Positions 11,816 to 45,850 of a stretch of DNA of 64,000 bases are shown one piece after another. How positions within the stretch are numbered: position 1 is the stretch's first letter; each line of letters opens with the position of its first letter. The stretch is from Amphiscolops sp. MND2022 (lineage: Eukaryota): positions 54,748,001 to 54,812,000 of the forward strand of contig OZ076409.1 in the NCBI GenBank assembly GCA_964187785.1, given 5' to 3'. The translations under genes and the position numbers were made by a program. The notes under the pieces were generated by a model. It worked only from the letters and a program-made list of their open reading frames with translations. It was not told the origin of the DNA and made no database searches.

Positions 11816-13191
11816 GTTTTTTTGATTCATTTGCTGGTTGGTTTGCTGGTTGTGGAACAGAGGTGTCCATTTTACGTTCTTGTGTGTTGTGACGCTTAGG
11901 TCGTGGGTCGTTGGCTGCATTGGCTTCGTTCCAACAATCTTCTGTTTTGTGGGGTTTGCCGCAAGTGTCGCATTTGGGTGGTTTGCCTGCACTGTGGTTG
12001 CTCGGCCCGTTGTTTTTGCGGGTTTGCATCCATTTGTCCCTCTTCATTTTACGGCATTCAGCTTTGTAATGTCCAAATTTATTACAGTAGAAGCAGTACC
12101 CTTTTTTAGTGGTCTGGGTGGTGGTTTCCGCTGGTTTGGGTTCAATTTTTGGTTGGGCGGGTTTCTCTCTCTAGGTGGAGTACTTTGTTGTTGTAAGGTT
12201 TGTCTTCGAGGTATGCGCGGTTTAGTATCTTCGTGACATGGTCCGGCACTTTGGCGTATATTGGCTTGTCTATGAACTGCTGCGCCTCTGATCCGAAGGC
12301 CTCTTTTGCAGTTTTCTGGAGTACATCCAGGAATTCGTGGAGTTTTTGTGTCGAGGGGTCGAATTTTAGTGCGTCCCATTCGCATCTAGCCTTTGCCATT
12401 GACAGATAGTCTCCAAATCGTCGTTTGAATATCGTCATAATCTCGTCCAGTGAGTCTTTCTTCGAGTCTTCAATGTTGCAAAAGGCTTGTAAGGCGTCTC
12501 CCCGGAGTAGGGAGTGAAAGTAGTTTATCTTTTGTATTTCTGTGAGGTGCGGGTACATTTTGATATTGTTCCTGAAGAGATCTTCAGAGAGCTCGAATTT
12601 TTCAGATTTCCCGTCAAAAGTTGGGAGTGACGCCGTTGGAGCTTTTGGCATGGGTAGCGTCGTGGTGCTATTTTTGTCTGGGGCGAACAAAGTTCGCGCT
12701 GCTGCTGGGCGTTCTTTTGACGGAGGTTGGCTTTGAGATCGAACCTTCGTTCTTTTGGGTTGATTGGTGGAGTCGTTTAAAACTCCTGTCACCATGTTAC
12801 GACTTACATCCGGGTCGTTTTGTGTTGAGCTTATTCTAACTGATCTAGTAGGGGTGTAGAAACTTCTAGTTTCGTTTTCTAACCCTTCTTCGACATTCTC
12901 TCTAATGTTCTCCCTTGTTTCAGGTCTCAGAAGTTTCATCACTTCCCTTTGGGATTCAATTAAGAGATTCTTAATCTCGGAAGTAATCTCCTCCTTCAGA
13001 GATGCTCTCAAACTTTCTAGGAGACTATTTTCAATTCTAGGGGATTTTGGTTTCGAAGGCCCCGCGGTGCTAGCGTCCTGTTCCGAAAAATAATGATTTC
13101 CTACTACTACTGGCGAAACAAAACCATCACTTACATTTTCACTATTTTCCTGTTGGGTATTCTTTCTCTTCTGACTTCCGGTTGTAAACAT
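11813..13191 (-). pseudogene. gag: gag of element A, starting inside the 5' LTR
   Basis: ORF 12142-13191 contains 'PTFDGKSEKFEL.EDLF...KINYFHSLLR', homologous to B gag, and a downstream CDTCGKPHKTEDC knuckle. Frameshifts near 12150-12050. Confidence 0.85.
12782..12794 (-). other. Primer-binding site TGGTGACAGGAGT (tRNA-Leu-like, inferred)
   Basis: Immediately follows the terminal CA of the 5' LTR. The first 12 nt are identical to the element B PBS. Confidence 0.85.
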
Positions 13192-15126
13192 TTCGATGAA
13201 GAAAAGATTTTTGAATGATTTGAATTTCTTTTCAAAGTTTCAACGGAAATGAATTAGGATAGAGTTGAGACAAGCAAGTTTAAGCAACTGATTATCGCAA
13301 AAGGCAAAAGACTGAGTCCCTTAATCGTCAAATTTCACTGTATTTATACCCTCCCAGCATCATTTGATCACGGCTATAATCCCTAATTTTCCTCGAACAA
13401 TTAGTCATTTCCTGTATTTTCGATGAAAAAATCGCGAAGTTTCCAAATTTGCGTCAACATTTCGTCAATTTTTAAGACACGACAATTTTAAGCTAGCATT
13501 AGTCATCAAACATGATCATATCATTTCATCCCGGCGTCCTTTTGCTTCCTCCCAAGCAGGAAGTAGATATTACTTCAGTCTGTCAAACCGGAAATGTTTC
13601 CCTGTTTTACTGCTTTGGTTCGCGGGAAATTGACGCTGAGATGCCGCGGACGTGAACAACAAATACCTGATTTTGAATTCCAGCATGAACGAAAATATGA
13701 CTAACTCTCAAATTATGGTTACTTAAACGATGCTAGGAACAATACTTTTATGAATTTGGACTCTATCTTTTCGTTAGGGACGAAATTAAGATCACTGTAC
13801 CAAATATATTCATCATCAACAAACTTGACATGTCGCGACAAGTACGACAAGCTCTACAAAAGTAACAGCAACATTTGTTAAGTAGCAACGGCAACGCAAC
13901 GCATTTAATGAACAGCAACAATGAATTAATATGGTAAATATAATCACTATCATGAGCATAGCGTCCAATATCATAGAGTACAAAAATATGAAGTATATGA
14001 AAATACATTTCCAGTACAAAATATACTTTTGTTGAAAGTATAAACTGTGACTTTCTGATTAATTTACTATGAACTCCCATAGTGGAAAAATGGCTCATGT
14101 AAGGGAAATTCCATGTTGTTGAAAAAATGCAAGTCTATTAGTTAACGTGGATTTGAACTATCCTATATGTGTCAAATCTACTTTAAGTTGAAACCTTAAG
14201 TTAACAGAATACCGCCTCTTTATTTATTTTACGAACTGAAATAGCCTGCATTAGTTTTCTTTTAGCATAATAATAACCTTAGTGCGATGAAACCTTAACT
14301 GATCTTGTAAATTCATCTATTTTGTTCAATCTCATAAACTTGTCAACGTCATGTTGACGAGTTTTCTTGGCAGAAATTAAGCTTCATAAACTTGTCAACG
14401 TCATGTTGACGAGTATTTTAGAAATGAGTCTGTCGCTAGCTGCCGGAGCAGTGACGTCACAGTGGCGGTAAATTGGAATGATTTCTAGCAATGCTATTAG
14501 TATAGGCGGATAATTGGAATGATTTTATGGTACGCTTATGCGAGACAGTGACGTCAATTGGTATACCTTCAACTTGTCTGCGTCTTACTGACGACAAATA
14601 TACATGTTTTCTTATTTCTTTCGCCGCTTTGTTTACTCAGCGCAGTATTGACGTCTTAAACCACTTTAATTGCTGTTCAAAGAGTAATTAAGCTGCCTTT
14701 CTAAGAAAAGGCTTAGATCATTCGGTGTGCCATCCCAGTGTGTTTTATATTTTAGATCTGATTGATGTTCTTTTGGGAGATGATTTTGACTACGTTTTCC
14801 TTTAGATTAGACTATGATTTCCTTGTTTTTAGAACGTATTTTAACTTAGTTTTCAGGTGGCGAATGTTGCTATTTTGACGTGGCGAGTACGTCTTACCGG
14901 AAATGCGTGAAATCATTTTGGCTCATTTCATTCTCTGTTTTCATTTTCATTCAAAGTTTGCGCAACGTAGATGTATTTTTACATTTCTAGTCACAATTTA
15001 TTTCAAAGTTAAAGTTTTAGAGTTACCAGTTAAAATAAGATTTTGGGAATCTCAGATTGCCTCCATGTCCTCTCCCGATCTTCAATCGTCGGCAACCACA
15101 AGCCAGACCGGGAGCGGGCTGTGACA
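12795..15126 (-). repeat. 5' LTR of element A (2332 bp)
   Basis: TGTCAC...GTAACA termini, adjacent PBS, and a TATAAATA candidate at 13348-13341. Confidence 0.92.
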
Positions 15127-16565: not shown

Positions 16566-18503
16566 TGTCGCAGGCTGCCGCCTGTGATGGTACAAGGATC
16601 ACTACTACCGCAGAAGGACAAGAAATAGCGGCCGGAACTCTACCAATATATTAGAGGTAAACATTAAAAACACAAACTTTGCTATTATTTTTTAGTCTAC
16701 AAGTTGTACCTGTTATCGTTGCGAATTTTACACTTAGTATATAGTTTGTTGATATTAGTCCGTTAATGCCAACATTTGAAAATTCAGATGCTGTATTGAT
16801 AATTGTAAGAGCTAGAAGTGCAGTACGAACACGCTGTTATAGCAATAGATAGGCAGCTAGAAAGCGTAAAGGAAACGAGTTCAAGTGAACGTAACTCCAG
16901 TTCCGGAGACGTCACTTGAGCTCAACCTGTTAGCCAATCATATTCATCCATTTGAGTAATAGTAGTGCTGTATTTAATTAATGGCCGGTTTAGGCCATAT
17001 GCCGGAATTTCACCTTTATCTATTGGCGCTTTAGTCAAACGGCCGGTTCCGGCCTTAATGTTCAGATGAAAGAATGTTAATGCGAGCACTGTTGTGTTTC
17101 GTTTAATAGTAGTCTAATCACGTTGCTGTACTAATTAAACGTTCATCTTAGCTAATTGGCGCTTTATTTTATCCATTCCAATATTAGGCCGAATAAGGCC
17201 ATTTGCCTGACTTCTATCCTCCGTTGCTGTGACCAATTGGACAGTGGCCGGTTGAGGCCCCTTTTCAATACTATTATTCAGATGCTAATTACAATCATTT
17301 AGTGTACTTTATATGTCATGTATAATTACAAGTACGTCGTAAAGACTCATGTAACTCTTGAAATTAATTGGTGTAATCAATACCAATGTATGATGTTGCT
17401 ACCAATATTAGTCCAAAGGACATGTCTGGCCATATTTACTAGTTGACACGTGGAATCTGTGTGCATATTATATAAAGGAAAATATGTGCTGTTACATGTA
17501 ACATTGCTGTATACAAGTTGATCTAGCCTGCTAACGGGGCACGTGCCGACACGAGATTGTCAGCATTCCTGAAATATTAGCGGCGTAAACATTTTAATCG
17601 ATGCTATTTGATGTACCGTGTGCCTTTTGAATACTTGTTATAGTTGTCAAAACAGGAATTTGATCGGCCGCGTGACCTTACGATCACGATTCGGCGGCAC
17701 TTTGATGCTTGCATAGTCGAGTTAAGTCAGGTGCTTTCGGAATGTGTTTGTAACATTTTTTGGCTGTTTGCATCATGTTTATCCCGCCCAAGGAAGTATA
17801 TATAGGGGCAACTTCCTTTGGGTGGACACAATTTTGTTTTGCTCCTGATATTCAGTTGATAACACTTTCTCGTTAACAACCATCAATCCTGTTTTCCGGT
17901 TTTAATAATTTAACTATTCAACCCGGTTTAGTCTTAATGCCTACTACTAGAAAACAAAAGAAGGCAAGGAAATCTAGAGGATTAGAGATTCTCTCTGATA
18001 TTGAAAACCTTGACATAATGTTAGGTGAAAATCACTTCAAGGACATGAGGAGAGACGGAAGCCTCGATGGAACTTCCATTAAAGGCAGGAAAGTGTTACA
18101 AGCAATAACTTAGAAAATGAGGAAATGAATCTCCATTCTGATCACAGGAATCCCGAAACTGGGACTAGTGCCGGTTACGACCGAACCACAGCGAGTATAG
18201 ATTCTCAAGCTGAGATCAATAAGTTATCGTGTCAACTAAACTCTAGAATATCTAGGGAGATGGATGAGATGATGAACAGCGTTAGTTCTCAAATCCAGAG
18301 AGCCATAAGTGATGCCATCAATAACCAAGTTTTGCCACAAATTCAAAACGTTATTATGGCCGGTTCAGGACAAGAGACTAGAAGGGGATGGGAGAGATCC
18401 GACGAGAGACCGGAAAGTTATTCCGAAGTTCAGTATAACGCGAAAACTAGAACTACCTTCAATAATGAACACGGTGATAGAATACAGCGTAATGTTCATG
18501 ACA
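16566..18503 (+). repeat. 5' LTR of element B (1938 bp)
   Basis: TGTCGC...ATGACA termini; matches 30975-32911; TATA candidate at 17797-17804. Confidence 0.96.
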
Positions 18504-18515
18504 TGGTGACAGGAG
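18504..18515 (+). other. Primer-binding site TGGTGACAGGAG
   Basis: Directly follows the LTR-terminal CA and is translated within gag as (M)VTG. Confidence 0.88.
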
Positions 18516-19632: not shown

Positions 19633-22600
19633 CTTCGCCACGACTCCAATATAACGAATTAATATCTGTCCGACAATACATCAGATCGGACCCTCCAACG
19701 ATACAATCCTTCCACCAATACAATCAGCAATTGATGGGCTATCCCTCTGTTGTCTGGCAGCAGCAGATGGAAAAAGCTACCATCATCACCTACAATAACA
19801 CCCATTTATTCCAGAAACCAATTCCTGTTTGGGACCCTGATTACACCACTACCTTCACCACCCGCTTCAGGCACATTCCCCTAATCGATGATTACAACCC
19901 AACATACATCGATCCAGACTACGGCAGAGATCCCTATTGGGACACCGAGCTTTACAACCAAGATTCACTGCAATTTCAATATGTCCTGGACGATTTTGAC
20001 TATTATAACAGAACAGTCCACGAGAACCCCCCAATTACCCATAACAAGAAAACACGAGCACTAATCGAAAACTGGCAAATGAATGATGGTACAAACCACC
20101 CAGTGTTCCCAAACCCATTGGGGACCGAGAACCCTGAAAACAGTGTTGAATCCACGCCACAATCATTATTAGATGAAAAACAATTCCAAAATGTACTCAT
20201 CACCAGAGATGGTGAACCAGACTGTATACCCCTGTCAACCAACATCAACCTCAAATGCAAGAAACGCATGCTTTAATTCCCAATGGACTTTGGGGAATTG
20301 ACCATTGATGGATTAATAGACACTGGAGCACTGTCCAGTGCAATCCCTGAAATGGACTTCCGGAAAATCCGCCTTCTATCTCCACAATCTGTTATCCGAG
20401 AAGGTCCGCCTCCGAACTTCCAAATCATGGTCGCTAATGGGCAACTGGAAACTCCTAAGAGTACCATCGAGCTCAAATTCGAAGTTGGTGACATTGAGTT
20501 CCATGAAATCTTTATAGTAATGGAACATTTGACAGGACCAATCATTGGACTAATGTTCCTTCAGAGAAATCATACAGTGCTGGACATGAGACAAGGGATA
20601 CTGAATTTCCCGTTCTTTTCAATGCAGCTCAAAACGGCTGACCATAAGTATTCAAATGTATTAGAACCAATTCTCAACCCTATTGAGATAACAATTCCAC
20701 CAAATGATAAAGTCCTAATTAGGACCAATTCCCTACTCTACCCCGAGAATGCTGTCACTGGAATTTTGCAACCGGGCGACCTTCTACACGAAGAAGGCGA
20801 CATCACATTTTGCCCAGCTTTAGTAACTCTGAATGACGGCAATATATTAATACCAGTGAACAATTTCACAGACCACCCTTATAAACTCAAAAAGGGACTT
20901 CATATTGCCAATTTCTCTGTCATGACACCAGAACAGATGAAGTATGTCAAATTGGTAGATCCGGCATCAACCTGGCACCTGTTGCAGAATGACCAGGAGC
21001 AAGCAGCCCATTACGTCAGCAGTCTCATCAAGACCAATAGAAACCCGCAAAACTCTGAAAATTATTGGATCCCAACTCCAGAAAATCCTGGAAATCCTGA
21101 GGAACACACACCTATACAAAAACGAATCCTACGCGAGTTACAGGCCCTACAGGACCTGGAGACACTCGATCCCACTACAAATGCAGAATCGCGTGCAAAA
21201 TTCTTAGAAAACTTTGACTGGAAAGATTCCACCCTTACTCCTGAAGAGAAGGAGAAAATTGAGGAATTGTTAGTGGAATTCCATGACATCTTTGCACGAC
21301 ACCGATTTGATATAGGCATGAATGAAGAATTCAAGGTGAAACTGACGCCTAAAGACGATTCCCCAGCCTATAGTCAAAGCCTTCCAGCTCCTATCAACTT
21401 GAAGGAGGACATCCTAGTTGAATTAGCCATGTTACATAAATATGGCATAATAACCACACTGCCATTCTCGAAATATGCAAGTCCAATATTCGCACAGAAG
21501 AAACCGAACGGGAAACTCCGACTCTTGGTTGACTTGAGAAAAATCAACAACCTCATCTCAGATGATTATATCAACAACAATCATCTCGTCAGTACACTAG
21601 TTGATGCAGCCCAACACTTGGCAGGCAAAAAACTGTTCTGTAAATTAGACTGTTCGCAGGCATACCACTGCCTACCAATGGCCGACCAACGATCAATCGA
21701 AATGTTGGCTTTCAATTTTGCCAGTCGCACATTCGCTTACCGACGCTTGGCACAAGGCCTTAGTCGGTCACTATCCGCATTCTCGAGTTTCATGAGGGAA
21801 TACCTCGACAAAGTCATTAAAGCGGATCAGTGTGCCCAGTATGTGGACGATATCGGCATCGCAGCCAATGATGTCGACCACCTCATGACGAACCTGAGAG
21901 CCACGTTCAAATGCATTCAGGAAGCAGGCCTTAAGTTGACAATGCACAAATGTCACTTCGGTGCAAAAGAAATTGTTTTCTCGGACGGACTATTACCCCA
22001 CAAGGCGTCAAACCTCAGAAACAGAACGTGCAAAACTTTCTGGAAAAGACCAAATTCCCGAAGTCGAAAAAGGCTTTACAGCGCTATTTGGGATTCCTAA
22101 ACTATTACAGGAATTATGTCCCAAGACTCTCCGAACGCCTTGCTCCATTCTACAAGATGCTCAAAAGTGACGAAAAGGTCCTAGTATCGAAAGAATTAGT
22201 CCAACAATTCGAAGAAATCAATAGAGCACTAGACAAATGTTGCGACCTGGCCCTACAACAACCCATTCCGAACAAACAAATAGCACTAATGACTGATGCA
22301 AGTTTTGGTGCAGCCGGGTACGCGGTCCTAATTGAAGACGACCCAAGTCAGAAATTTACATCACTCAGAAAATCGTATGCACCGGTCGCATATGGATCAA
22401 AAATTTTCACCCCAGCACAGATCAAGATGTCAATTTATGCCAAGGAATTCCTTGCAATTTATTTTGCATTCAAAGAATTCGGACATATCTTCTGGGGTGC
22501 GCCGAAACCGGTCATCATCCTTACGGACAACAAAGCCGTCACGAGATTTTTCCAAACGAAAATAATACCCCAGCCCTGTGGAACGCGTGTGATTATTTCA

Positions 22601-24836
22601 TTCAGTTCAATTTTGTCATAGCACACATCCCAGGGGCACAAAATACAGCCGCCGACTATTTGTCCCGATTGGAAGCAGATCCAAAGGACAAATTGGTGAT
22701 GAAAATTCGTGAAGATGTACAAACACTACCAATCGAAATCAACGTCCAATCCGCAGGTGTGACGCAAGAAGAACAAATCTTCTACACCAATGACGACGAC
22801 GAGACAGAGGAACAGTATTGGGCAAGAAAAGAAGCAATTAGGAAAAATCCAACAACTGATGAGCCCACTGTTACTATACAAACTCTATCAACAACTCTGG
22901 TCAAGCAACACCCCGATATACAAGTCCGATTGAGGAGAACGAACCAGATCATTATCGAGCAATCCAAGGATGCGGTACTACAACAATTGAAAGCAAAACT
23001 GCTTCATGAAGAGTATTCAGAAAATCTACTACACCAGGATGCCCGATATAGACATTACGCAAACAATCTGGAACGAATTGTACTAAAGGACGAAATCCTG
23101 ACAAGGCAATATTTCGATGAAACAGGGAATGTTAAATACCATCAAATTCTACTCCCGCAACATTTACTCCAGGAATTGCTCCAATCCCTTCACGGGACAG
23201 CGCATAAACATCCTGGGACTTCAAAAATGCTGCAGGAAATTCGACAGAGGTATTACTACCCTAACATGGCTAAACACGTCAAAAAGTGGGTAGAAGGGTG
23301 CGAACAATGTGCCAGAGACAAAAGAGTCCCTAACGCAACGATCACACCTGAGCTGCTCAACTTGCCCGAATGGGACCTCGGACCTGAAGACGCCATGCAA
23401 ATAGACCTATTGCCGAATCTTCCCCCAAGTGATGGGTATGAAAACGTCTTAACAGCAATTGATGTATTCTCCCGATATTTGTTCGCCTATCCCCTTACGG
23501 ACACATCAGCGATCAATGTAGCAAAAGCGCTCATTGACATCATGACTAAACACTCATATCTACCAACGACTCTTATCACTGATAAAGGTACTGCATTTAC
23601 TTCTACAATTATTGGGGAGGTTACGCAGATTTTGGGCATCACACTCAAATGTGCAACGACAAAACACCCGCAGACAATTGGGAAATTGGAGCGAACCCAT
23701 GCCTCATTGAAAACAAATCTCAAAATGGCATGTGGGGAATATCGCCGACAGTGGCACAAATACTTGCCATTAGCAGTACTGAATCATAATACTAGTTATC
23801 ACGCCAGCATCGGTTGTGAACCGACGAGAGTATTCCATGGAAGAATTCCATTTAATATCTTGGATCACAAACTTGGAAATAATCCAAATGAGCAGATCAA
23901 CCCCACAACCGAATTTGCTGAAGAAATCCAAAACCGGACGAAAATCCTAATTGACAAAACGAAGCAGAACATTATGCAGTCGTATATCAAGTACAAAGAA
24001 TATTACGACCGCAAAGCAAAAGCTGCTCCATTGAAGGAGAATGATTACTGTTTCGTCTTACAGCCGAAAGCGGATCATCAGGGATCAAAAATTCCATTCC
24101 GCGATTACCGTTGGGTTGGACCATTTGTAGTCCAAAAAGTTTTGCCAAATGAAAACTATATAGTACGACGGATCAATACGAACAAAACTCAAATTTTGCA
24201 TCGCATTCGCCTTAAGAAGTTCGTCCCCAATCAACCGCTTGAAGATAATTTCCGAGAACAACGTCTGCAGCCAGACGAAGAAATTGTCATTCCGCAAGAT
24301 GACCTATACGTCATAGCGTGGGAAACAGATTTTGGCGAGCAGCTAGGTACACGAGACAACGAGCCTATTCCGACTAGCGTGCCGAATGGCGAACAACCGA
24401 ATGCGGCACAACCGAATACAAGTGACGCACACGAGAATGAAGTGGATTATGTAATCACGAGTGATGAATCAAATCTTGCCGATCGTGCGTCGCATAACCG
24501 GAATGAACGATTAATTGATGACGTCACTACAAGAAATGAAGCTAGTGAACAGTCTAGAAATGAAGAACCTGATTGGCCGAATCCGGCCATTTCCCCAAAA
24601 AGCCATGAAAAATCTTTGCCGGATACGGCAGACAGCCTACAAGACAAAGAAATTTTACCCGATGAAAATTTTAGAACTGAAATCGATGCACAAAATTCTC
24701 CGAAAAGGGGGATGATATTATCGTGCCCGAAATATCTGAAAACGATGCTAGAAATGAAAGTCTGAGCCTTAGAGGAGGGAAATATAACCTCAGACCTAAC
24801 CCTAACCCAAACTACTCAGAAGACTTCAGATACTAA
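19633..24836 (+). pseudogene. pol: pol of element B (PR-RT-RNaseH-IN), a few disruptions
   Basis: LIDTGA; QYVDDIG; MTDASF/LTDNK; LHGTAHKHPG..CEQC; QIDLL/TDKG/LERTH; C-terminus KYNLRPNPNPNYSEDFRY*. Confidence 0.95.
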
Positions 24837-25066: not shown

Positions 25067-28000
25067 TTAGTCTTTAGAGGACCCTTGAACGGCTTTCTTG
25101 GATGCAGACGAAATTGTAGAACTGCTGCTACCTGCTCGCTTCCTCTGCTTCTTGGAAGGCACCTTTATAGCTGAATCATCAGGGATGGACGAGGCAGTAT
25201 CCTTTTCTATCCGGACAGAACGAGTAGAAGGAACAGCAGTAACGGCCTTATAGGAAGTGAGAAGACTCTTGAGATCTTAGACCTACCAAACTCATCCACA
25301 AGGGTCCACGGATCGTAGTCAGCAGAGAAAGCAGAACGCTCGGAAGAGGAACTGAGAACTGAGAACTTCTCCAAATTGACATCCGAGCAGCAATGGGAAA
25401 TGGAATTGGGCACACAGGAAAGGTAACTCTGGCAAGGCACCACTAGATCGGCAAACGGCCCTGACACCCCGTTGTGTCAACACTCCCGAACAGTACTGGG
25501 GGATATTGGGGGCTAACACTAGTCAGACACAAGCAGCAGAGTTTGAACAGATAGAACAAGTGCTCATGAGTTTGGAAAAACTCAAGCCCCATTAAAAAGT
25601 CTATAAGATCGACGGAATTCTCCATCAGATCGAAATCTGGAGGATAGTTGACTCGGAGGTAGTCCAACAGGGCCAGATATTCGTCTCGACAACTGTTCTC
25701 GTTGGCGCTAGTGACCCATGATCGAAGCTGGAAAGTAGAATATAGCACATCGAAGTGCCGGAGCCCGACCTCAGAAGGCCTTTTGAAAAGCACGAAGGGA
25801 TCAAAAGCAGCCAACCCCTTTATCACTTCAGAGCTCAGACCAGCTTGACTAAGGACTTGTTTGACTAGATATTGAATGAATTGCAACGCCTCTTTGACAA
25901 AGCTGCTGGTCGTTTCTGCAGCCGTCTTCTCGATACGGCCTTCTCCGATTTCTTGTTCAGGTGTGTGACTTCTGCACTCTGTTTACTAGCTGTAGCTATC
26001 CGGTTTGTGAGACGGTGCCGGATAAGGAAGTCTTCCTCACTCATGAATTTGCCCTCGCTCACCTTAAACCCGAGAAGGAGGAACCACGAGTTCTCGAGGG
26101 GAATGATTTCTGGCAAATAACATCGGGCGCACAGTTTTGAAACAAAGCGGCAAACCTCCCCACAGAGGAAGAACGACGCATCACGGCGGCCCTGCAGATT
26201 GATGGCGAAACTGGTAACGTCTGAAATACAACAGTCGTGATTATGAGAGGAATAGGATATACAAACGAGACAATGTTGATAGTGATTCAACAACTCAAGG
26301 ACCTAAATTATCGGAACGACGTCTTAGTGCACTGACGTGGAATGAAACCGTATACTCACAATCGCTAATTATACGTTGGAAGAATTCCAATTTAGCGACG
26401 AAGAAGAAGTCACAGATGATGGACCACTCGAAGCTTTGGACCTGATTGTGGACTCCTTGCATTCCTTGGTGAGGGGTGTGCGTAGTCAAGTACTGTCTGA
26501 TTGCCTTCCAATTCTTCACAAGTTCTCGGCAAAGACTGGGGAGGCTTGACAAATCTAGTTTTCAGGTGTCGATGGCCTTAAATGAACCAAATTGTCTCTC
26601 AACTGCACCTACCTTCAAACCTCTAACTACATGAGTGAACTCAATATACTTACTCTTCCCAGATCAGGAGATTCCAGAACCCAGTCCTCACCAGTAGCAG
26701 CTCCCAATGAAACGATCAGGCACTTTAGGACAGAGAAAAAGTCGATCCGTCCAAACACGCTGTAGGTGGGCTTGTGCATCATCTTCTGAAGCTGCAGCTG
26801 CTCAAAACGAAAGCAACTCTGTACTGCTCGGGGAAAGAACTCATTGTGATCTATGGTTTGGATCAACTCTACCGGACATCCCGAACAGGCGACGATATCG
26901 GCTTTGGTTGAAACCACAAATAGTAGTCTGGATATCGAACCCAAGTCTCCAGTCAGATCAGCGGAGGGAAGCCCACATCGGCACACAAAGACGCGACAAA
27001 GAGAATCGCCTTTCCAGAACTTGATAGACATGAGCCTGTTCACGCCCACATTCTCAAATTCGATAGCGAAGCATTGGGTGGTAGCAATTTGCTCTGCTAA
27101 TTCACTCATGGCACAATTGAAAATGTGTTGGATTATGGTCTAAAGAAGAAAAAGACAATTATGAAATGTGTAGGGAATCTATACCCTCCCTGAGTAAATG
27201 TTAGCCTGAAAGGGAACCTACCGAAATTCGTTCTTCCCCCAGTCAAAGTCGCAGTAACTGGTTTGATAGTTCGTCAGAGATCCTATCTGAGCCCATAGTC
27301 TGCGGAGTACTCCAAGATCACCGTGAGTTTGCACGAAGTCTCCAATGAGGTGTATTTGTGTCTTGGCCCTCGACGCAGGAGTGACGAGTGTGGTTGACGT
27401 CCCTTTCACGAAGTCGTCGTAGAATGGGAAGCGTTCTCCGATGTCTATTAGTTCGACGTGTATAAATTTGGGGAGTTCTTTCGCCAGCTCAATCTTGGTG
27501 AGGATCTTGCCGTTCCGCCCTCTGACCCGATGCTGCACTTTCCCAGTCACTGGATCAACGCTTTTGAGGTGTTCATAGCGCCGCCTTTGATCACGTCTGA
27601 GGTGTTTCTCAGTTCTGTGGTGACGCAGGATCTCCAGTGTACCCTTGGTCTTCACAGAAATATTCTTCTTACATACATGGCACCACACCATATAAGGATT
27701 GTGAAGGGGATCAGCTGGCCCGGAGATGAACGATCGGGTCCAGCCAATTTTGGAGAAGAATTCCTCCTTCATGGGAATGCCCCGTGTATGGCCGCGCCGT
27801 TTCTTCTTGGGCAATTTGCCTGAACTCGAAACTAGAGGTTGTGCTGGGGCCGTCTGGGTACGTCATTCGGAGAGCGTGGCGTCGAGACTGGATTGATCAG
27901 TGGACTCAAAACCTGCTTGGGTAGGGTCAGCTCGAGAAGGTGGAACGCGGCTGAAAGGTTCCTTGAAAGCCTGTGAGATGACTGCCATCTCACCAGAACT

Positions 28001-29227
28001 GTCAGTTTCGTTGAAAGATTCTAACCCTCTACTTTCTTGGCCAGCACTGGATCCTTCAGAGGTGTCAGTCCCTGATCCAGAACAGTATTCAGCCCGCGAA
28101 CTATCTTCCGAATCACTTTGCAGCCCTGGGCCGGGAGTTTGAGCCCTTGGTCGGATCTTGAAGTGGTCAGTTCGGGCACTGGAAGTGACGGGGGCCCCCC
28201 TAACCGCTCCGATTACCATCTGCTCCATGGTGGAGTAGGACATCTTCAAGGTCTCGTCTGTAAGGACCCTTAGGAGATGATAGATTTGTGGCTCCGTGAA
28301 CGCCACAGTTCTATGACCGAGCGGGAAGGTGATAGTGCTGGCATCATCATCGAAATACTGTTTCAAAACGGCCCTACTACGGCCGGAAAGCTCCCTGATC
28401 TTGGGGTCCTGAGCTGCTGAAGTGGAAGGACGCATGGAATCAGGAATTGCAGCGAAAGTATCAGTTGATGACCCTTCTCCTGCTGTGTCTGCTACGTTAC
28501 CTATTGGCAGGTAGGCGTACAATTGAGGAGCACTAGCCTGGCTAGATGTGTCACCGGCTTCTTCGGTTCCAGTCTCATCGCCCAACCACCTGACTTTTGG
28601 TGTTCCTGTTGGCAGCTTGGGGACATCACATAGGGAAGAGCTTTCGTCCGTTTCAACCTGGAGAAATGAGGCTGCGGACATTTCGGCAGGAGTCACGTTA
28701 GTGGGCAACAATTCCGGTAATATAGTCCTCGAGGAAGGAGCAATCGTTAGTCCAGTCTCTAACTGAGTCAAATTGAGCTCGTCGGTCTCACCGGCTACGC
28801 CTGGGGTAGGGGTACTAGTACGAAAGAGCGGCGTAGTAACCTGTGCCTCGATCCCCGTGGAAGAAGGACCCTCAGTTATACCTCTCCCGGTCTCTTGTTC
28901 TCCTCTCTCAGGGTTCTCCGCAGTATGTCCCTCTGATTGCTGTTGGGCCTGTTCGAGGAGCTGAAGCTTTTCGTCGGCATAAGATGTTACGTCGACGTTG
29001 CTGTCTGTACTGCTGGGAGACCTTGGTGGCTTTATTGGAGGAAAAGGAGGAGGAGACAATTGTGATCCACGGACGGTGGAGGACGTACCCACAGAAACAA
29101 TCGTTTGTGTATGTTGGTCGAGAATGTCCGCTGCAGAGTTGGTTTGTGTTTGCGGTTCGTCTCCTGGCTGGTTTGCTAAACAAAAGGAGATGAAATTTGG
29201 CGGTGAGCTTCCTTGGAAAAAATCCAT
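25067..29227 (-). pseudogene. Antisense 4-exon gene of element B: BED-finger, inactivated hAT-transposase-like protein (~1290 aa reconstructed)
   Basis: Exons 29227-27222, 27139-26654, 26576-26360, 26220-25067. Donors GTAGGT/GTAAGT/GTGAGT. Finger WCHVCKKNISV..GTLEILRHHRTEKH. Collinear with C 40523-44447. Premature stops at 27863 and ~26563. Confidence 0.8.
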
Positions 29228-30277
29228 TTTACCGCATTAGAAAACTTCCGGAAGTGTTTGAAAATCTGAACGAAACGTGTTATCACGCGTTTACTAATGG
29301 AAACAGGAAGCATATTGTGAACGGATTTAACCCTGATCAAGTTAGATTTAGTTCAAAAATAAAACAAACCAACCTTCAGACGAAGACATTCTGGGGCAAG
29401 ACTGATTGTAGGGAATGAGTCCTTGTTCGGCTGTAATGGATAAGGGAACTTGGCCGAGTCCGGCTGAAGAAGGAGATCCGGGATATTCCAAAGAGAAGAG
29501 CTGACGGAAGAAGAGCTGGACGTACAAGGATGAATCTCAGTTGGAAGAATACAAATAAAAGAAACAAATGTAGAGTAATCAGAAAAGGAATTGGATTGGA
29601 ATTTTAATGTAAAAGAATTGAAGAGTTGGAGTTCGTGGCTGAAGAATATTACCAGACTAATATTATGGATTATCTACATATTTATTCTGTACATGGAGTC
29701 TGCCAGCGAAGTGTACAAAGAACTTTATTATTTACAGCTTATTTAGTTAGAGGCCGGTTATGGCCGTTTACCCTGTTTTGTTTTGCCGTTTTGTCCAGTT
29801 ACCCTAGTTACCCTTAGCTAGAATTTTCGCCATCTTGAATTATTTGGATTTATTAGTTTCGCCATTTTTATTATTTAATTTTACAACTTATCGAAGCTTA
29901 ACGCTGATTGGCTGAAGTCATTTTGAAGGAATTCCGCGTCGCGTGTCGTTAATTGCTATCAGGCAAACCGTTAATTACCCACTTGAAACGGATGAAGATA
30001 ATATTTACAACTCAAGCGTCATTAACACCTCTCAGAGTGATGGTGCTGATGGGGGGTAAACACTGAGTTATCAAAGGATGCCGACTAATTATAAAATTCC
30101 ATTCAGGAATGTTTACGTCGGATCAGGGCGATTTACCGATAACTCGACCGCCAAAAACGAATTGCCGGGAAAAGGCCCGAGTCGACTAAATTTTTGAGTT
30201 GGTAAATTCATTCCACTTTGAAATCTCACTCAAGCTAGTTAACTTTCCCAATCAGCAAAATTGCCAAGAAACTCATA
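29228..30277. promoter_or_regulatory. Putative internal divergent promoter of element B
   Basis: Non-coding spacer between head-to-head ORFs, with sequence conserved in C 39495-40520. Contains ATTGG boxes and GGCC-N6-GGCC. Confidence 0.5.
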
Positions 30278-31063
30278 ATGCAGAGGTATAACCTATCTAA
30301 AAAGCTCTTTGATCTTGAAGAAGACTCAGAAAGTTCAGTAGATTCAGTTATCTACATCTCAAGTGACAGTGAGAATGAAGTCTCAAGTTCCTGGGACTCA
30401 GACTGGTCCACGGATACAGAAGAGATCATAGAAAGAATAGAACGAGAGGTGAAAGCTGCTCCAATCCCTATAGCGAGACGCGGGATGACGACGGAAAATT
30501 TAGAAGACGAGATGACAGCTGGACCAAGCAGTGCATGGCATGTTCCGCCCTCTACCCCTAAACTAGGATTCGAGTATTTTAACAAGGAAATGTGCTTGGC
30601 CCCATCGAAAAAACAAAGAAAATCAAAAGTCGAGCTCTGTGCAACTGTATTACCCGTTCTGGAGTCCCCACAGTCTCCTCCTGACCATGAAAGAGGACCG
30701 AGCATTGACACCCCTCTTGCGCAGTCAACCTCTGGATCTTTCTATGCGTCCTATCATGTGCAAAATATCGAGCCTTACCAGGATGTGAGCCAAAATTTGC
30801 ACACAGGCTGTATGGTATGTGGCAAGTCGAGAGATCAAATAAAAGCAGAAAAGGTGAACTGGTACATGCAAAGATCGACACCTAGCAGTGAGCCCGCTTA
30901 TATTACCGCCCTACGACGAGAGGCTTATGAAAATGGCTTGAACGCAGGAAGCTTACTTTTCCTAACACCCGCAGTGTCGCAGGCTGCCGCCTGTGATGGT
31001 ACAAGGATCACTACTACCGCAGAAGGACAAGAAATAGCGGCCGGAACTCTACCAATATATTAG
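30278..31063 (+). CDS. Sense accessory protein of element B (261 aa; acidic N-terminus, SIM-like VIYISSDSE, CxxC)
   Basis: Intact ATG ORF, clearly homologous to C 38700-39490. The last ~29 codons lie in the 3' LTR. No env-like transmembrane segment is visible. Confidence 0.8.
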   Translation: MQRYNLSKKLFDLEEDSESSVDSVIYISSDSENEVSSSWDSDWSTDTEEIIERIEREVKAAPIPIARRGMTTENLEDEMTAGPSSAWHVPPSTPKLGFEYFNKEMCLAPSKKQRKSKVELCATVLPVLESPQSPPDHERGPSIDTPLAQSTSGSFYASYHVQNIEPYQDVSQNLHTGCMVCGKSRDQIKAEKVNWYMQRSTPSSEPAYITALRREAYENGLNAGSLLFLTPAVSQAAACDGTRITTTAEGQEIAAGTLPIY

Positions 31064-32911
31064 AGGTAAACATTAAAAACACAAACTTTGCTATTATTTT
31101 TTAGTCTACAAGTTGTACCTGTTATCGTTGCGAATTTTACACTTAGTATATAGTTTGTTGATATTAGTCCGTTAATGCCAACATTTGAAAATTCAGATGC
31201 TGTATTGATAATTGTAAGAGCTAGAAGTGCAGTATGAACACGCTGTTATAGCAATAGATAGGCAGCTAGAAAGCGTAAAGGAAACGAGTTCAAGTGAACG
31301 TAACTCCAGTTCCGGAGACGTCACTTGAGCTCAACCTGTTAGCCAATCATATTCATCCATTTGAGTAATAGTAGTGCTGTATTTATTTAATGGCCGGTTT
31401 AGGCCATATGCCGGAATTTCACCTTTATCTATTGGCGCTTTAGTCAAACGGCCGGTTCCGGCCTTAATGTTCAGATGAAAGAATGTTAATGCGAGCACTG
31501 TTGTGTTTCGTTTAATAGTAGTCTAATCACGTTGCTGTACTAATTAAACGTTCATCTTAGCTAATTGGCGCTTTATTTTATCCATTCCAATATTAGGCCG
31601 AATAAGGCCATTTGCCTGACTTCTATTCTCCGTTGCTGTGACCAATTGGACAGTGGCCGGTTGAGGCCCCTTTTCAATACTATTATTCAGATGCTAATTA
31701 CAATCATTTAGTGTACTTTAAATGTCATGTATAATTACAAGTACGTCGTAAAGACTCATGTAACTCTTGAAATTAATTGGTGTAATCAATACCAATGTAT
31801 GATGTTGCTACCAATATTAGTCCAAAGGACATGTCTGGCCATATTTACTAGTTGACACGTGGAATCTGTGTGCATATTATATAAAGGAAAATATGTGCTG
31901 TTACATGTAACATTGCTGTATACAAGTTGATCTAGCCTGCTAACGGGGCACGTGCCGACACGAGATTGTCAGCATTCCTGAAATATTAGCGGCGTAAACA
32001 TTTTAATCGATGCTATTTGATGTACCGTGTGCCTTTTGAATACTTGTTATAGTTGTCAAAACAGGAATTTGATCGGCCGCGTGACCTTACGATCACGATT
32101 CGGCGGCACTTTGATGCTTGCATAGTCGAGTTAAGTCAGGTGCTTTCGGAATGTGTTTGTAACATTTTTTGGCTGTTTGCATCATGTTTATCCCGCCCAA
32201 GGAAGTATATAGGGGCAACTTCCTTTGGGTGGACACAATTTTGTTTTGCTCCTGATATTCAGTTAATAACACTTTCTCGTTAACAACCATCAATCCTGTT
32301 TTCCGGTTTTAATAATTTAACTTTTCAACCCGGTTTAGTCTTAATGCCTACTACTAGAAAACAAAAGAAGGCAAGGAAATCTAGAGGATTAGAGATTCTC
32401 TCTGATATTGAAAACCTTGACATAATGTTAGGTGAAAATCACTTCAATGACATGAGGAGAGACGAAAGCCTCGATGGAACTTCCATTAGAAGGCAGGAAA
32501 GTGTTACAAGCAATAACTTAGAAAATGAGGAAATGAATCTCCATTCTGATCACAGGAATCCCGAAACTGGGACTAGTGCCGGTTACGACCGAACCACAGC
32601 GAGTATAGATTCTCAAGCTGAGATCAATAAGTTATCGTGTGAACTAAACTCTAGAATATCTAGGGAGATGGATGAGATGATGAACAGCGTTAGTTCTCAA
32701 ATCCAGAGAGCCATAAGTGATGCCTTCAATAACCAAGTTTTGCCACAAACTCAAAACGTTATTATGGCCGGTTCAGGACAAGAGACTAGAAGGGGATGGG
32801 AGAGATCCGACGAGAGACCGGAAAGTTATTCCGAAGTTCAGTATAACGCGAAAACTAGAACTACCTTCAATAATGAACACGGTGATAGAATACAGCGTAA
32901 TGTTCATGACA
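30975..32911 (+). repeat. 3' LTR of element B (1937 bp)
   Basis: Matches the 5' LTR with few differences and is followed by TSD CTACA. Confidence 0.96.
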
Positions 32912-37080: not shown

Positions 37081-37085
37081 GTAGT

Positions 37086-39490: not shown

Positions 39491-40522
39491 GCTATCTTGT
39501 TTAATTGAGATGCGACTGAATAAAGTGAAGATTTAATTAGAATGAATTCGCTGATTTTCCGAACCAAGCCGAATCGGACCTTTTCCTGGCAATTTCAGTT
39601 CGGCGGTTAAAACTTCGGTTATTCTTTCTGAACCGACGTAACCTTTCCATAATGGAATTTCTAGCGGCATCAGTCGTTTGAAATTCAGAAGGCGACCCGC
39701 TTTCTCGCTTTCTCAAGTGGATGAGAGAAGAGTTTTTGAGTTGTTATCAACAAATAACTTCAACCTAAGTAGATAGTTAACGGGCCGCTTGAAAGTAATT
39801 AACGGCACGCGTCGTAGGCTTTCCTCAAAATGGCTTTAGCCAAACAGAACCGTCCATTGAAAGAATGAAAAATGAATAATTATTATGACGGAAATAATAA
39901 CTGAAATAATTCAAAATGGTGAAAATTCTAACTAGTTGGTAATAAGGACAATGGAACAAAACGGTAAAACGAAACAAGGCAAATGGCCATATCCGGCCTC
40001 CAACTAAGTAAACTGCAAAAAACGAGGAGTTCCTGTACATTTCACTGGCAGACTCCATTTACAATTTTAAATATGTAAATAAACACATAATATTAGTCTG
40101 GTAGTTTTTTCAGCCACGAACTCCAACTTTCAATTTTCTAATTGTTGTTTTACCTCATTTTAATTTCAATTCTGTTTATATTCTTAATTTGTATTCGTTA
40201 ATTTTGAATTCTTCTCGTATCCTTGGTTACGGCACCTGTCTGCATTTGTCTCCAACTTCGTCACTGACTTACTCTTCCTCAGAGTTCATCAGCTTTTCCC
40301 CTATCTTCAGCCGAACCCGGCCATTCTCCATTGCTGCATTAGCCAGATAAGAATCAAGTTTGGAGGCGCAAAGTCATCATTACAGATTGACTTCAAACAC
40401 AGGTTGGTCTGGATTTTTATGTTGAACTACATAACTTGATCGGGGCTAAATTTTGTTCAGAAAGAGCTTCCTGTTTCCGTCATTGAATGCGTGATACTTC
40501 CGGAAGATTTCCAATGCGGCAA

Positions 40523-43500
40523 ATGGACTCGTTTCAAGGAAGCATACCGCCAGATTTCATCTCTTCTTGTTTAGAGAGACCAGAACCCGAATGCCAAACA
40601 GCACCAAACCATTCTGAGTCTGCAGACCTTAACACTGTCACCGGACTAATTTCCGACGCACAGGCCCACGACAGAGTCACACCATCGCCCCAAAGTACCA
40701 GCAGTGAACCGGATGTCAACCTCTTTGCTGAGGACATAGTACGCCAAATAGAAATTTGACAACAGAAGACTGTTGCAGAACTCGATTCCACTTGCACCCC
40801 AAATTCAGAAGAAACTCCGCAGGTCGTACAACGGTCCAGCACCCCTGTTCCTGGTAGTTACGGGCAAGAAACCGAGGCTAGCCTCACCCAGTTAGAGACT
40901 GGACTCAGAGTTGCGACTTCTTCTCGCACTCTTCCCGAGCTTCTAACTACGGCTCTTTCGGATCATGAGGCAGCTGAATTGTCAAATTTACAGACTGAAG
41001 ACAACAACGTTTCTTCATTGTGTGAGTTTCCATCATTGCCTAATTTTGAGCCAAAAGTCCGATTCCTGACTGATATGAGCGAGAGTGAGAATACTGCGGA
41101 GGAAGGGAGCCTCGTCGATTGTCCTACCCTTTATGGCCGTAATCCTTTGAGATCTGAGTCAGGTACTGAAGCTGGTGATGAGACAGACATCAATTGCACT
41201 CCAACAATCCGCGACATGCCCTCTACTTCCTCGGGTTATGTCCTTGGGGACAATGTTCCTGATCTGTCCGGACGATGCAGGGCAATTCTGGAGAATTACT
41301 TCCAAGAATCTGACGCCTTCAATCTACCCCAGGGGCATCCAGTAGTTGCCTTCACTGAACCCCAAGTGTACCATTTGTTGAGAGTCCTGAATGATGAAAC
41401 ACTCAAAAAATTGTTCGACACCGTGGAACGTATGGTTATTGAAGCTGTGAAGGGGAAAACTTCAACAACCCCGTCTAGAACCTCCCACTTCCAGACCAAA
41501 AGGCGAGCACAAACCCCAGAGCGCTGGATTCATTCAGACTCCAAACAGGAAACGTCTGGGCACTCAGGTGCTGCCAGTGCATCTGGTTCCGAGGACTTGG
41601 GCGACACTTCATACGATGGAGAGACTGACAGCGCAACGGAGATGGCTTTGATCTCTAACACCTTCAAGCCAATGTCAGAAATCAATCAGGAACATCCAAC
41701 CACCGAGGAACCGAATCCCGAACAGGCTACTGAACACAGCAGTCAGGATGCAACCCTCCTGGAATTACAGCAGTCGGCAAGGAATGCAAAAACCCCAAGA
41801 CCCTCCATGGAGAAACGCTCAAAGGCGGTCAAGAGACCTAGTCGAAGAAAGGCACCTATGCGGGAGGAGTTTTTCTCCAAAATTCGGTGGACCAGTTCTT
41901 TCATTTCCGGTCCAGTTGACCCTATCCACAATCCACATATGGTCTGGTGCCATATGTGCAAGAAGAATTTTTCAATTCGAAACAGGGTCCCGTTGAGATT
42001 CTGCGCCACCATAGGACCGAGAAACATCTGAGAAGCGACCAGCGGTGGAGGTACGAGCACCTCAGGAGTACTGATCAGCCACCGGTAAGGTCCAACACCG
42101 CGTCCGGGGTCGAAATGGGAAGATTTTAATTAAATTAGAACTAGCGAAAGAACTTTCGAAATTTATCAACACGGAACTCATGGAAGTAGGGGAGAGATTC
42201 CTTTTCTACGACGACTTTATCCAAGGGCGGACCGTTGCCTTGATTACACCGGAGTCTCGGGCTCGGACCCAATTGAGGATTGTCGCTGAATTTCTCGAAA
42301 CTCAGAGCGATTTCTCTATCCTTCGAAATCTTTGGGCCAGATTAAGTACCTTAACTGATCACCACGCCAGCCTCTGCGTTTTTGATTGGGGCGAAGAACA
42401 CATGACGGTAAGATCTGATTTCTTGTTTAAATTCCTAATCTTGTTTACAGTGCCATGTTTGTGAATGGTTCGTGACACCTGATTGTTTCATTCCAGGCCA
42501 TCCGCCAGCACTTCTTTGATAGTGCTATGTCAGACATTGCCGAGCATGTTGCCGCAGAGCAGTGTTTCGTTTTGGAATTCGAGGAAAGAGGGCTTAATCG
42601 TTTCATGTCAGTTCGATTTTGGAAGGATCAGCACCTTTGCGAGTTGCCTGCCACAGGACTGACAGGTGATTTGGGATCACTGTCCCGGCTACTTTCCCTC
42701 ACTTCCACCAAAATAGACGTAGTCGCATGTTCTGGAGGCCCTGCTGACTTGATCCGGACGATTAATCAGTCTCCCAACTTCACGCGGAGTACACAAGCAG
42801 TTCGTTTCGAGCAGTTGGACTTGCCTCATTTATTGAATAAGATGAGTTACAGTGTCTTCGGGCACATAGAATTATTCTCTGTGTTGCGGGGGCTGTTAAT
42901 TTCGCTCGGCGGATCGCAAACAGAGGACTGGGTCTTGAGGAGTCCTGAACAGGCCAAAGTAAGTGTTCCCTCAATTCATCTCAATGAAATAGGGCAAACG
43001 TTAAGAGGAACTCCCTTTAGATCTTCACATCTTTGTGGCATTGACCATGTGTTTGTAGTCAACGGATTAATGGATTGATTTGCCCAATTGTAATATTTGT
43101 GAGACTTCAGGCCATCGCAAAATGCAAGTTGGATCTCTTGACATTGCCAGCCCTCTGTCAAGAGCTGATAGATGAATGGAAGTCTGTTACTTCATACCTA
43201 ACTCTACACGCCCCATACCAGCAAGGACAAGGAGTCAGAACCAGGGTAGGTAACCTCATTAGGAATACCATCTTTAGAATATAATATCACTCAGCAAGCA
43301 CTACCACGGATAATGTCACCCGTTAAGGCCGCCAGCTAAGGATCAGTGTATGTGTTTCAGGTGCAGAGTTTCGAATGGGGGCTCAAATGCGATGAGTTCT
43401 TCTTGGTCAAGTTAGAACTCTTCTACCATCTTGTCAGTGACTGCAAGTATAGGTTCATTTGTCCAGGGTTTCGTCCAAGACTCCCGTTAGGGCTATGTTT

Positions 43501-45665: not shown

Positions 45666-45850
45666 ATGTACATATGTATTTATGAATTTTCAAACTGTGA
45701 ACTTTGTCCATGTCTTTGCACTTTTCTGTATTTATTCATTTGTCTTTGTTACTTTTCGTTATTTCTGGTCCCATATTTATTTGTAAGGGCTCTTTGTTGT
45801 TATGCCTCAGTATCATGGTATGCATGAAGCCTGGAAAGAAAAGAGGGGCT
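43153..45850 (+). repeat. Tandem duplication inside element C (43153-44630 and 44631-45850)
   Basis: Near-identical sequence and duplicated ORFs (e.g. 44244-44447 vs 45462-45665). The second copy lacks ~255 bp. Confidence 0.92.

Follow-up and report, generated by a model that had tools for sequence, protein, structure and literature searches.

A BED finger joined to a non-catalytic hAT body acts as a DNA-binding factor in the ZBED family and in DAYSLEEPER, and VANC of the VANDAL elements, like Spm TnpA, is a transposon-encoded, sequence-specific activator or anti-silencer. Spm TnpA is derived from a transposase and functions as an accessory factor of a transposable element, according to the accessible part of a preprint in which the word "retrotransposon" does not occur (bioRxiv 10.64898/2026.08.24.746577).

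Antisense open reading frames (ORFs) between pol and the 3' LTR are found in most copies of the plant Ty3/Gypsy elements Grande (gene23), RIRE2 and Retand (TRP28) and of the fungal element Boty, and for these ORFs an own promoter and a nuclear role have been proposed, as given in the accessible text of two papers (PMC7264820, PMC11963269). Both state, in the same accessible text, that the origin of these ORFs is unknown, with no similarity to other transposable elements that would support such a source, and according to the first it is an open question where the antisense accessory ORFs of LTR retrotransposons come from and what they do (PMC7264820). The accessible text of the Retand paper does not contain the word "intron" (PMC11963269). 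In bdelloid rotifers LTR elements have captured an ORF3 (DEDDy, GDSL), and neither "transposase" nor "intron" occurs in what is accessible of that paper (PMC5408684). Likewise, "antisense" and "transposase" are absent from the available text of PMC9911081, and "antisense" and "hAT" from that of PMC13547354. No description of a retrotransposon-borne, hAT-derived antisense gene was found in the literature searched; an entry in Repbase, Dfam or a subscription journal is possible.

The stretch of DNA analysed here (the window) comprises 64,000 nucleotides of Amphiscolops sp. MND2022 and holds three Gypsy LTR elements (A, B and C) that carry such a candidate gene. The most likely account, to which we give about even chances, is that a Gypsy clade captured a hAT transposase gene and kept it for a product that binds DNA and regulates the element carrying it. 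The term "domesticated", used for the gene in an earlier sequence-only reading of the window, should read as domesticated by the retrotransposon and not by the host.

Three Gypsy elements and their antisense gene

The order in pol is that of Gypsy elements, with protease, reverse transcriptase, RNase H and integrase in element B, and elements A and B have TG..CA LTRs, 5-bp target duplications and a common TGG motif. Element B lies on the plus strand between a 5' LTR (16566..18503) and a 3' LTR (30975..32911) that are 99.3% identical, flanked by the duplication CTACA (16561-16565 and 32912-32916). Its gag frame begins at about 17938, within the 5' LTR, and includes the primer-binding-site-like TGG motif (18504..18515, plus strand), whose 12 bases are the same in element A. 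The frameshifted pol (20277..24765, plus strand) matches the Pfam families RVT_1, rve and Integrase_H2C2; a search for a polypurine tract found no purine-rich bases ahead of the 3' LTR start at 30975. A further ORF in sense orientation (30278..31063, plus strand), which contains a CxxC motif and is divergent from the antisense gene, extends into the 3' LTR and is 54% identical over 204 amino acids to an ORF of element C (38756-39487), without a Pfam match.

Element A, with its 5' LTR at 12795..15126 and a broken gag-pol at 7265..13239 (both minus strand), has a 3' LTR that ends at 1959 and starts about 350 bases before the window, and the target duplication AAAGG. In element C the pol region (45652..51291, minus strand) is 80% identical to element B at the DNA level.

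The sequence-only reading had described a spliced gene, antisense to gag-pol and located between pol and the 3' LTR, in all three elements, and the gene, its position and its orientation are real. In element A the broken gene (3025..6765, plus strand) has introns at, for example, 4753-4882, 5503-5634 and 5717-5816; about 425 nt are deleted near 6720 relative to its relatives, and the 3' part is lost. The broken gene of element C (40388..44447, plus strand) has introns at 40403-40574, 42408-42496, 42959-43110, 43246-43360 and 43443-43509, and its 3' part is locally duplicated, up to 45847. All three window copies, that of element B included, carry stops and frameshifts.

In element B the gene is on the minus strand. 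Exon 1 (29374..29389) is a predicted five-codon ATG mini-exon with a phase-1 donor. Exon 2 (27222..29175), 98% identical to the corresponding exon of copy L005, is broken by one stop at about 27861 and shifts frame at about 27233, and encodes an acidic, serine-rich region of low complexity, a basic tract, a CCHH finger and a helical region that precedes the RNase H-like core. Exon 3 (26654..27139) covers strands 1-4 of the RNase H-like beta sheet and the beginning of a helical insertion, an assignment made by registering its row of alignment A4 on residues ~204-334 of the structural model, in which the strands are at 210-242 and 270-272. Exon 4 (26360..26576) has one stop and exactly lacks an intron of the C-type copies, and exon 5 (25067..26220), with several frameshifts, encodes the helical insertion domain, the C-terminal hAT-like helices and a basic, serine-rich tail.

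The four introns of gene B, 29373-29176 (198 nt), 27221-27140 (82 nt), 26653-26577 (77 nt) and 26359-26221 (139 nt, phase 1), are all of the GT..AG type, as had been claimed in general; in element C, however, the intron 43443-43509 has a GC donor. The proposed homology of intron positions is borne out: the junctions of gene B recur in C, A and the further copies L005, L007, L032-34 and L036-42, and homologous junctions are shared by subfamilies that have nearly saturated synonymous sites. The start that had been placed at 29227 is probably intronic. In seven of the eight B/C-type copies examined a donor is conserved roughly 200 nt further upstream (172 nt in the case of C), and five of these seven also have the five-codon ATG mini-exon. 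The "MDFFQG..CL" stretch is conserved at third codon positions as well, i.e. as DNA, and position 29227 may be used as a start in an unspliced form.

Intron content varies among the copies, and loss is exact. In B/C-type copies the number of introns in the antisense gene reaches five. The intron before VQSFEW is exactly absent in B, L005, L007 and L037 and present in C, L036, L038, L039 and L040, and L041 reads openly across the position of the phase-1 intron. In one further subfamily group the core of 740 amino acids is a single intron-free frame, tail-to-tail with the integrase.

Copies, selection and exchange

A survey for intact genomic copies listed 141-150 scored places per exon, many of them with open frames. 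The antisense position between pol and the 3' LTR is kept in most copies, the integrase was on the opposite strand in 11/11 of the flanked loci tested, and three clades, with integrases at 48-58% identity to each other, share the same place and orientation. In one B-type row the antisense side was matched and the pol partner was absent from the listing.

For 21 between-subfamily pairs with measurable dS, dN/dS was 0.04-0.18, and in 41 saturated pairs pS was 0.75-0.92 versus a pN of 0.08-0.33. The pair of window copy B and L005 gave 0.38; these two belong to the same subfamily, differ by few changes and were left out of the between-subfamily values. No pair compared exceeded 0.4. From the comparison of the window elements, the D43 antisense row (out of frame) and local alignments of C with others that were too short were excluded. 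Thus dN/dS, which the sequence-only reading had put forward as a check, is far below 1, indicating strong purifying selection on the whole transposase scaffold, the finger included.

Selection on the scaffold rather than on the finger alone, together with the fixed linkage to pol and the basic tracts at both ends of the protein, would also suit a role in integration, in which a protein of the same origin would bind to DNA or chromatin at the target and act as tether or escort for the integrase complex. The chromodomain has a comparable role in other Gypsy elements. We consider such a role unlikely, since nearly identical pol ends are paired with cassettes whose proteins share only 52-68% identity, an observation that speaks against a close, lineage-specific interface with the integrase. 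From these sequence comparisons, the cassette appears to have been exchanged between element lineages.

The cassette diverges faster than the integrase, and the exchange point is its stop codon. Such fast turnover could reflect conflict, with a protein of the same origin acting on the host or on competitors and not on its own DNA, as a decoy or antagonist of the silencing machinery or of active hATs; indeed, the genome is rich in genuine hAT genes whose motifs are intact. The antisense protein, however, has no sequence similarity to these hATs, so mixed oligomers with them are unlikely, its near-invariant finger suggests nucleic-acid binding, and no pair has a dN/dS above 0.4. We therefore regard a decoy or antagonist as quite improbable.

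Fold of the protein and its catalytic positions

The intron-free core of a D-type relative (L043:1599-3818), about 25% identical to B and not the window's own gene, was modelled with AlphaFold (pLDDT 85, pTM 0.73); it is linked to the window genes by tblastn (E 7e-12 to 5e-20, and 1.5e-11). Foldseek ranks 1-10 are all Hermes, the best being 8edg_A (E 1.9e-4, prob 1.00), and the next unrelated match has E 0.074. VIA-align to 8edg_A aligned 405 residues at an rmsd of 5.3 with Z 13.1 (next Z 6.9), a value near the caution line of that program for helical proteins, and the TM-scores are modest (0.30-0.40 by query). The model shares with Hermes, colinearly and at about 10% identity, an RNase H-like core with a helical insertion domain. 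In BFVD the top match was a hAT-domain protein (E 5.6e-4). In the ESM Atlas, Pfam families stood on 7/10 of the shown rows with scores of 0.81-0.83, which serves as a lead only; the families (DUF4371, FAM200-ZBED5, DUF659, Dimer_Tnp_hAT, DUF7963) we take to be hAT-related.

The last exon, modelled alone (pLDDT 63), had no clear match in fold, and the ESM Atlas search with that exon gave no usable match. A Hermes match of this last-exon model at rank 36 (Z 4.3) concerned another region and was disregarded. In a homodimer prediction for model residues 30-340, in which the alignment was not used, the score was 0.00, which carries no verdict on dimer formation.

For the BED-type finger of the sequence-only reading there is a BED-like C-x2-C...H-x5-H finger (27602..27682, minus strand), in the position that the finger has in hATs, with near-invariant ligands (131, 132, 134 and 130 of 134 rows); the Pfam family zf-BED, on the other hand, does not match it. 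In the model it forms two strands and a helix, outside the region structurally aligned to Hermes. The B-type finger exons, misaligned in a trial, were omitted from alignment A4.

Motifs and secondary structure, set against genuine hATs, and not a residue-level superposition, served to locate the catalytic positions. At the Asp positions so mapped, the frequency of D was 0.00 in 139 and 144 rows, and Asp was not among the four commonest residues. The segment of the Glu helix is about nine residues shorter, with Val or Ile at the Glu position in 197/210. The family has not kept CxxH, mapped by motif against the genuine hATs, nor the RW motif of hATs. These column counts back the earlier description of the protein as catalytically dead, and it seems, as far as sequence columns can tell, to lack the cutting residues of hATs.

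A protein that still works as nuclease or recombinase, its active site being rearranged, would fit the retained RNase H-like sheet, the acidic residues of B/C-type copies on strand 1 (positions 213, 215 and 216) and several other conserved acidic columns. However, the strand-1 position that is Glu in B/C-type copies (113/139 rows) is Arg, Lys, Val or Met in the A- and D-types, the strand-4 position has no acidic residue in the family, and the Glu helix is shortened. Moreover, terminal inverted repeats (TIRs) that could serve as a substrate are missing, the 25 longest inverted pairs shown per region being short and at chance level. Retained cleavage is thus very unlikely.

Could the match to Hermes be a generic likeness of RNase H folds and helical bundles, in a protein from another DDE-fold or host gene? 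The last-exon model and all sequence-profile tests would allow this. The Pfam hAT profiles (Dimer_Tnp_hAT and related) did not match the antisense protein, with DBD_Tnp_Hermes matched by 1/82 members at the chance level of E 0.019; PDB profiles gave no hAT signal, profiles against five genuine hATs of the same genome did no better than shuffles, and hhalign against hAT gave a probability of 0.3%. Because no Pfam profile matches, standard annotation misses the gene. Against a generic likeness, the Hermes alignment runs in order across three domains with a Z double the values for ISCth4, Tn5 and RAG1, three libraries and the language-model search agree, and the finger sits where a hAT has it. 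We therefore find this explanation very improbable, and the hAT origin that had been proposed is supported by the predicted fold and by language-model features, while profiles do not detect it.

It is hardly credible that the gene represents independent hATs inserted within Gypsy copies or a relic evolving neutrally, although A, B and C are broken and one row lacks a listed pol partner, given the shared site in three clades, the low dN/dS, the LTRs, up to 99.3% identical, that enclose the gene, and the outcome of the check for TIRs and 8-bp duplications, in which no convincing TIR pair was found and the 5-bp duplications belong to the LTR elements, so that the gene is cargo and not a nested hAT.

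Proposed role and comparison with known systems

In the regulator reading, an ancestor of the Gypsy clade would have gained a hAT transposase gene, oriented antisense and placed between pol and the 3' LTR, and retained it as an accessory gene under its own promoter. Antisense introns survive retrotransposition when the genomic RNA is the opposite strand; those described here can persist because the packaged RNA would be the other strand, unspliced at these sites. The protein would have retained the zinc finger, the hAT scaffold and the basic tracts and lost the cutting residues. We infer that the gene is transcribed and spliced, and that its product binds DNA in the nucleus, sequence-specifically, at the LTR and promoter region of its own element, where it would keep the element transcribed or shield it from silencing, like TnpA and VANC in plants. 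Occasional recombination involving cDNA made from spliced antisense transcripts could cause the exact intron loss, and template switching the exchange of cassettes.

Clustered, clade-specific short motifs occur in LTR and promoter. A-type elements are enriched in GACGTCA, the core of the CRE site, which may serve a host factor; in the four B/C-type promoter regions examined no enriched motif was found. More tentatively, a retrotransposon lineage may have taken a full-length DNA-transposon enzyme across the boundary of class I and class II, disarmed it and used it since then as an antisense cassette, spliced and exchangeable, whose protein in each clade is matched to a motif of that clade, recognises the DNA of the element itself and defeats host silencing. 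If true, such a cassette would help to explain the very high copy number of the family, and this would be the first case in which the origin of an LTR element's antisense accessory gene has been traced.

One antisense accessory ORF thus appears to have a traceable source, a hAT transposase, with a fold that predicts DNA binding without cutting. The route from transposase to regulator would extend from hosts and DNA transposons to retrotransposons. The gene also offers a natural experiment in intron biology: its introns would be protected by lying on the strand of a retroelement that is not packaged, relatives differ exactly in which introns they have, and some of them have a core entirely free of introns.

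The class of Grande and Retand shares with this gene the antisense placement between pol and the 3' LTR and differs in that here the hAT-like fold is complete and as many as five introns are present in B/C-type copies; no Pfam match to TRP28 (PF04195) or an SMC-type domain was found in the antisense protein. The ORF3 elements of bdelloids are, in the accessible account, a further capture of an extra ORF by LTR elements of animals, but not of antisense spliced genes. With Hermes and other hATs the protein has in common the N-terminal CCHH finger, the RNase H-like core with its helical insertion and the C-terminal helices; it differs in the loss of DDE, CxxH and RW, its long low-complexity N-terminus, the lack of TIRs and its occurrence as LTR cargo only. 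ZBED genes and DAYSLEEPER are host genes at fixed loci, whereas this gene is multi-copy retrotransposon cargo. Finally, TnpA and VANC serve DNA transposons of their own kind, whereas here a class II scaffold, with its whole fold, would serve a class I element.

Gypsy elements and their antisense gene

Self-comparison and open reading frames identified three Gypsy elements, A, B and C, in the window (54748001-54812000 of its contig), which belongs to a eukaryotic assembly of 1.07 Gb. Element B is bounded by LTRs at 16566-18503 and 30975-32911 (99.3% identical; target duplication CTACA) and element A by one LTR at 12795-15126 and another that ends at 1959 (target duplication AAAGG); LTR boundaries are available for these two, and the pol of C is 80% identical to that of B. 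An identical TGG motif lies 3' of the 5' LTR in A and B. In both, the gag frame begins within the 5' LTR, some 130-190 codons in (17938-18515 in B; 12780-13190 in A), and reads through the primer-binding motif, so that a gag start is also present in each 3' LTR (32284-32919). Further gag-start fragments on the forward strand (37078-37620 and 53548-54063, the second containing a 200-base N gap) are probably LTRs of other related elements. Another sense ORF crosses the 3' LTR boundary in B (30278-31063, forward strand) and C (38756-39487, reverse strand); the two are 54% identical, share a CxxC motif and have no Pfam match. A has an ORF at the equivalent place (1856-2332, reverse strand). Since a purine-rich tract is absent 5' of the 3' LTR in B (30945-30974) and A (1960-1975), plus-strand priming may be unusual in these elements. 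Independently of the LTR elements, a small repeat is dispersed in both orientations (15127-15515, 36713-37055, 60769-62289).

The sequence-only reading had described an antisense gene with homologous introns in all three elements, and both claims were borne out. The gene lies between integrase and 3' LTR in A (3025-6765, forward strand), B (reverse strand, predicted exons 29374-29389, 27222-29175, 26654-27139, 26360-26576 and 25067-26220, hence four introns) and C (40388-44447, forward strand). GT..AG junctions occur at homologous protein sites here and in genomic loci outside the window (L005, L007, L032-34, L036-42), the single GC..AG junction being in C, although intron lengths and sequences vary between copies. 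Exact presence/absence differences exist within the B/C types and within the A types. The start at 29227 proposed earlier for B probably lies within intron 1, because a conserved donor is found 172-207 nt upstream of the acceptor in seven of eight B/C-type copies, a five-codon ATG exon precedes it in five of those seven, and between donor and acceptor conservation extends to third codon positions, which are saturated in the remainder of the gene. Even among subfamilies saturated at synonymous sites, the DNA sequence at the 3' end of intron 1 (29176-29240) is conserved; it may function in cis, on either strand. All three window copies contain stops and frameshifts; the 3' part of the C gene also has a local tandem duplication with deletion (43153-45847; copies 97-99% identical).

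The antisense gene is cargo of the LTR element. In junction-spanning searches, which score the best 40 candidates and are biased towards copies with both halves, pol and gene were spanned by 33 of 43 rows for B (one gene-side row lacked a listed pol partner) and 25 of 42 for the intron-free D-type (zero unpartnered gene-side rows), and for A a pol partner was found for all 19 long gene-side rows. A nested insertion can practically be dismissed, as no convincing pair of terminal inverted repeats flanks the gene among the 25 longest inverted pairs listed per region, and it travels with pol in these searches. Pairwise integrase identity among A, B and D is 48-58%; A resembles D more than either resembles B, both in integrase and, weakly, in the accessory protein. 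In five B-like copies pol and spacer match at 95-96% and similarity ends at the gene's stop codon, from which we infer that cassettes have been exchanged between copies by recombination. In the two of these that were fetched, the cassette protein has 47-77% identity to that of B, and A-type copies show the same break.

Family size, selection and the intron-free form

The antisense gene belongs to a large family that is under selection. Searching the genome with its exons gave at least 150, 141 and 150 scored places (lower bounds, from 4,500-7,600 candidates), and certain open-frame lengths recur in many of them. Protein searches returned 184, 100 and 319 relatives; among the matches listed, every one came from ENA or Logan and none had a Pfam label or name. 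A 50%-cluster search found 851 at E<=0.001. Among 62 between-subfamily exon comparisons, dN/dS was 0.04-0.18, far below 1, in the 21 with measurable dS, and in the 41 saturated pairs pS was 0.75-0.92 versus a pN of 0.08-0.33. In the control, integrase of B against that of C, dN/dS was 0.057. In six more distant relatives (P0298, P0304, P0314, P0331, P0333, P0354) the last exon is apparently split at an extra site, which suggests another subfamily with a further intron.

One relative, P0307, a protein of 890 aa, matches the exons of A and A's relatives colinearly, and a genome search with it gave 51 scored places, 47-53% identical, with a single frame of 862-918 codons. In L043 and L044, the two such loci fetched with long flanks, this frame is tail-to-tail with integrase on the opposite strand, and an opposite-strand integrase was present in 11 of 11 flanked loci tested (these and nine others). 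The colinear frame and this arrangement indicate, at the sequence level, that the exons of the split gene encode one protein in nature. Because the best match of P0307 in the Amphiscolops assembly is only 47-53% identical, this protein may belong to a different genome, a hint that the family extends beyond one assembly.

Fold and catalytic state

The proposed relationship to hAT transposases stood in structure prediction and failed in sequence profiles: the antisense protein had no match in Pfam or PDB profiles, profiles against five genuine hATs of the same genome scored no better than shuffles, and hhalign gave no link to hAT. Genuine hAT frames of 597-697 codons with catalytic motifs are present in this genome (L052-L056). 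A 740-aa intron-free core, modelled from an 82-row alignment with register checked (pLDDT 85, pTM 0.73), is predicted to contain an RNase H-like sheet of four strands and, after it, a long helical domain; the modelled protein is a relative, tied to the window genes by tblastn (E 1e-11 or better). The top ten Foldseek matches in PDB were all Hermes (best E 1.9e-4, next at E 0.074; TM 0.30-0.40 by query, 0.42-0.57 by target). Hermes also ranked first among 48,161 chains in VIA-align (Z 13.1, 405 residues, rmsd 5.3), followed by ISCth4 (6.9), Tn5 (6.4) and RAG1 (5.7). The top match in a viral structure library was a hAT-domain protein, and ESM features of P0307 agree with hAT at lead-level scores. 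The last exon modelled alone folded poorly and had no clear structural match. Taken together, hAT ancestry is very probable; that the Hermes match is a fold coincidence, as the blank profiles might allow, is highly improbable.

The genuine hATs of the genome display DxW, (T/R)D, CxxH, RW and a late Glu, which we take to have the roles known in Hermes. These positions were mapped by motif and secondary structure on 542 aligned segments, with counts dominated by B/C types. At the strand-1 position, 113 of 139 rows, those of B/C types, have Glu, and the others carry Arg, Val or a different residue; at the strand-4 position Ser predominates (116 of 144) and the frequency of Asp is 0.00. Phe replaces the CxxH His (134/144). 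The Glu-helix segment is shorter by some nine residues, and 197 of 210 rows have Val or Ile at the Glu position. Each finger ligand is retained in 130-134 of 134 rows. The counts agree with the earlier impression that acidic catalytic motifs are not recognisable, and the best provisional reading is an inactive enzyme that retains a functional DNA-binding finger; a residual nuclease is improbable.

Possible role and known systems

The region preceding the 3' LTR would drive transcription of the gene; the transcript would be spliced and encode a DNA-binding protein of the nucleus. GACGTCA occurs 4-7 times in A-type LTR and promoter regions, a number reached by 0 of 100 shuffles, and 0-1 times in B/C-type regions; the B LTR is enriched in CCGGCC, and no enriched motif was found in four B/C-type promoter regions. 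Such clusters would fit clade-specific target sites but also host-factor sites. Two 80-bp direct repeats rich in GACGTCA lie in the A antisense promoter (2780-2975) and also occur in L042.

Transposase-derived regulators are known both in hosts and in DNA transposons. We favour self-regulation or anti-silencing of the own element, at about an even chance, because of the clade-specific motifs and the precedent of TnpA, which its preprint describes as a transposase-derived regulator of a DNA transposon (bioRxiv 10.64898/2026.08.24.746577). A role in integration targeting is unlikely, and antagonism of host or competitors somewhat more so.

A retrotransposon with a hAT-derived, intron-containing antisense gene was not found in the openly accessible papers searched. 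Plants and a fungus also have antisense ORFs in this place; the papers that describe them leave their origin and function open (PMC7264820, PMC11963269), and these ORFs share position and orientation with the antisense gene of A, B and C.
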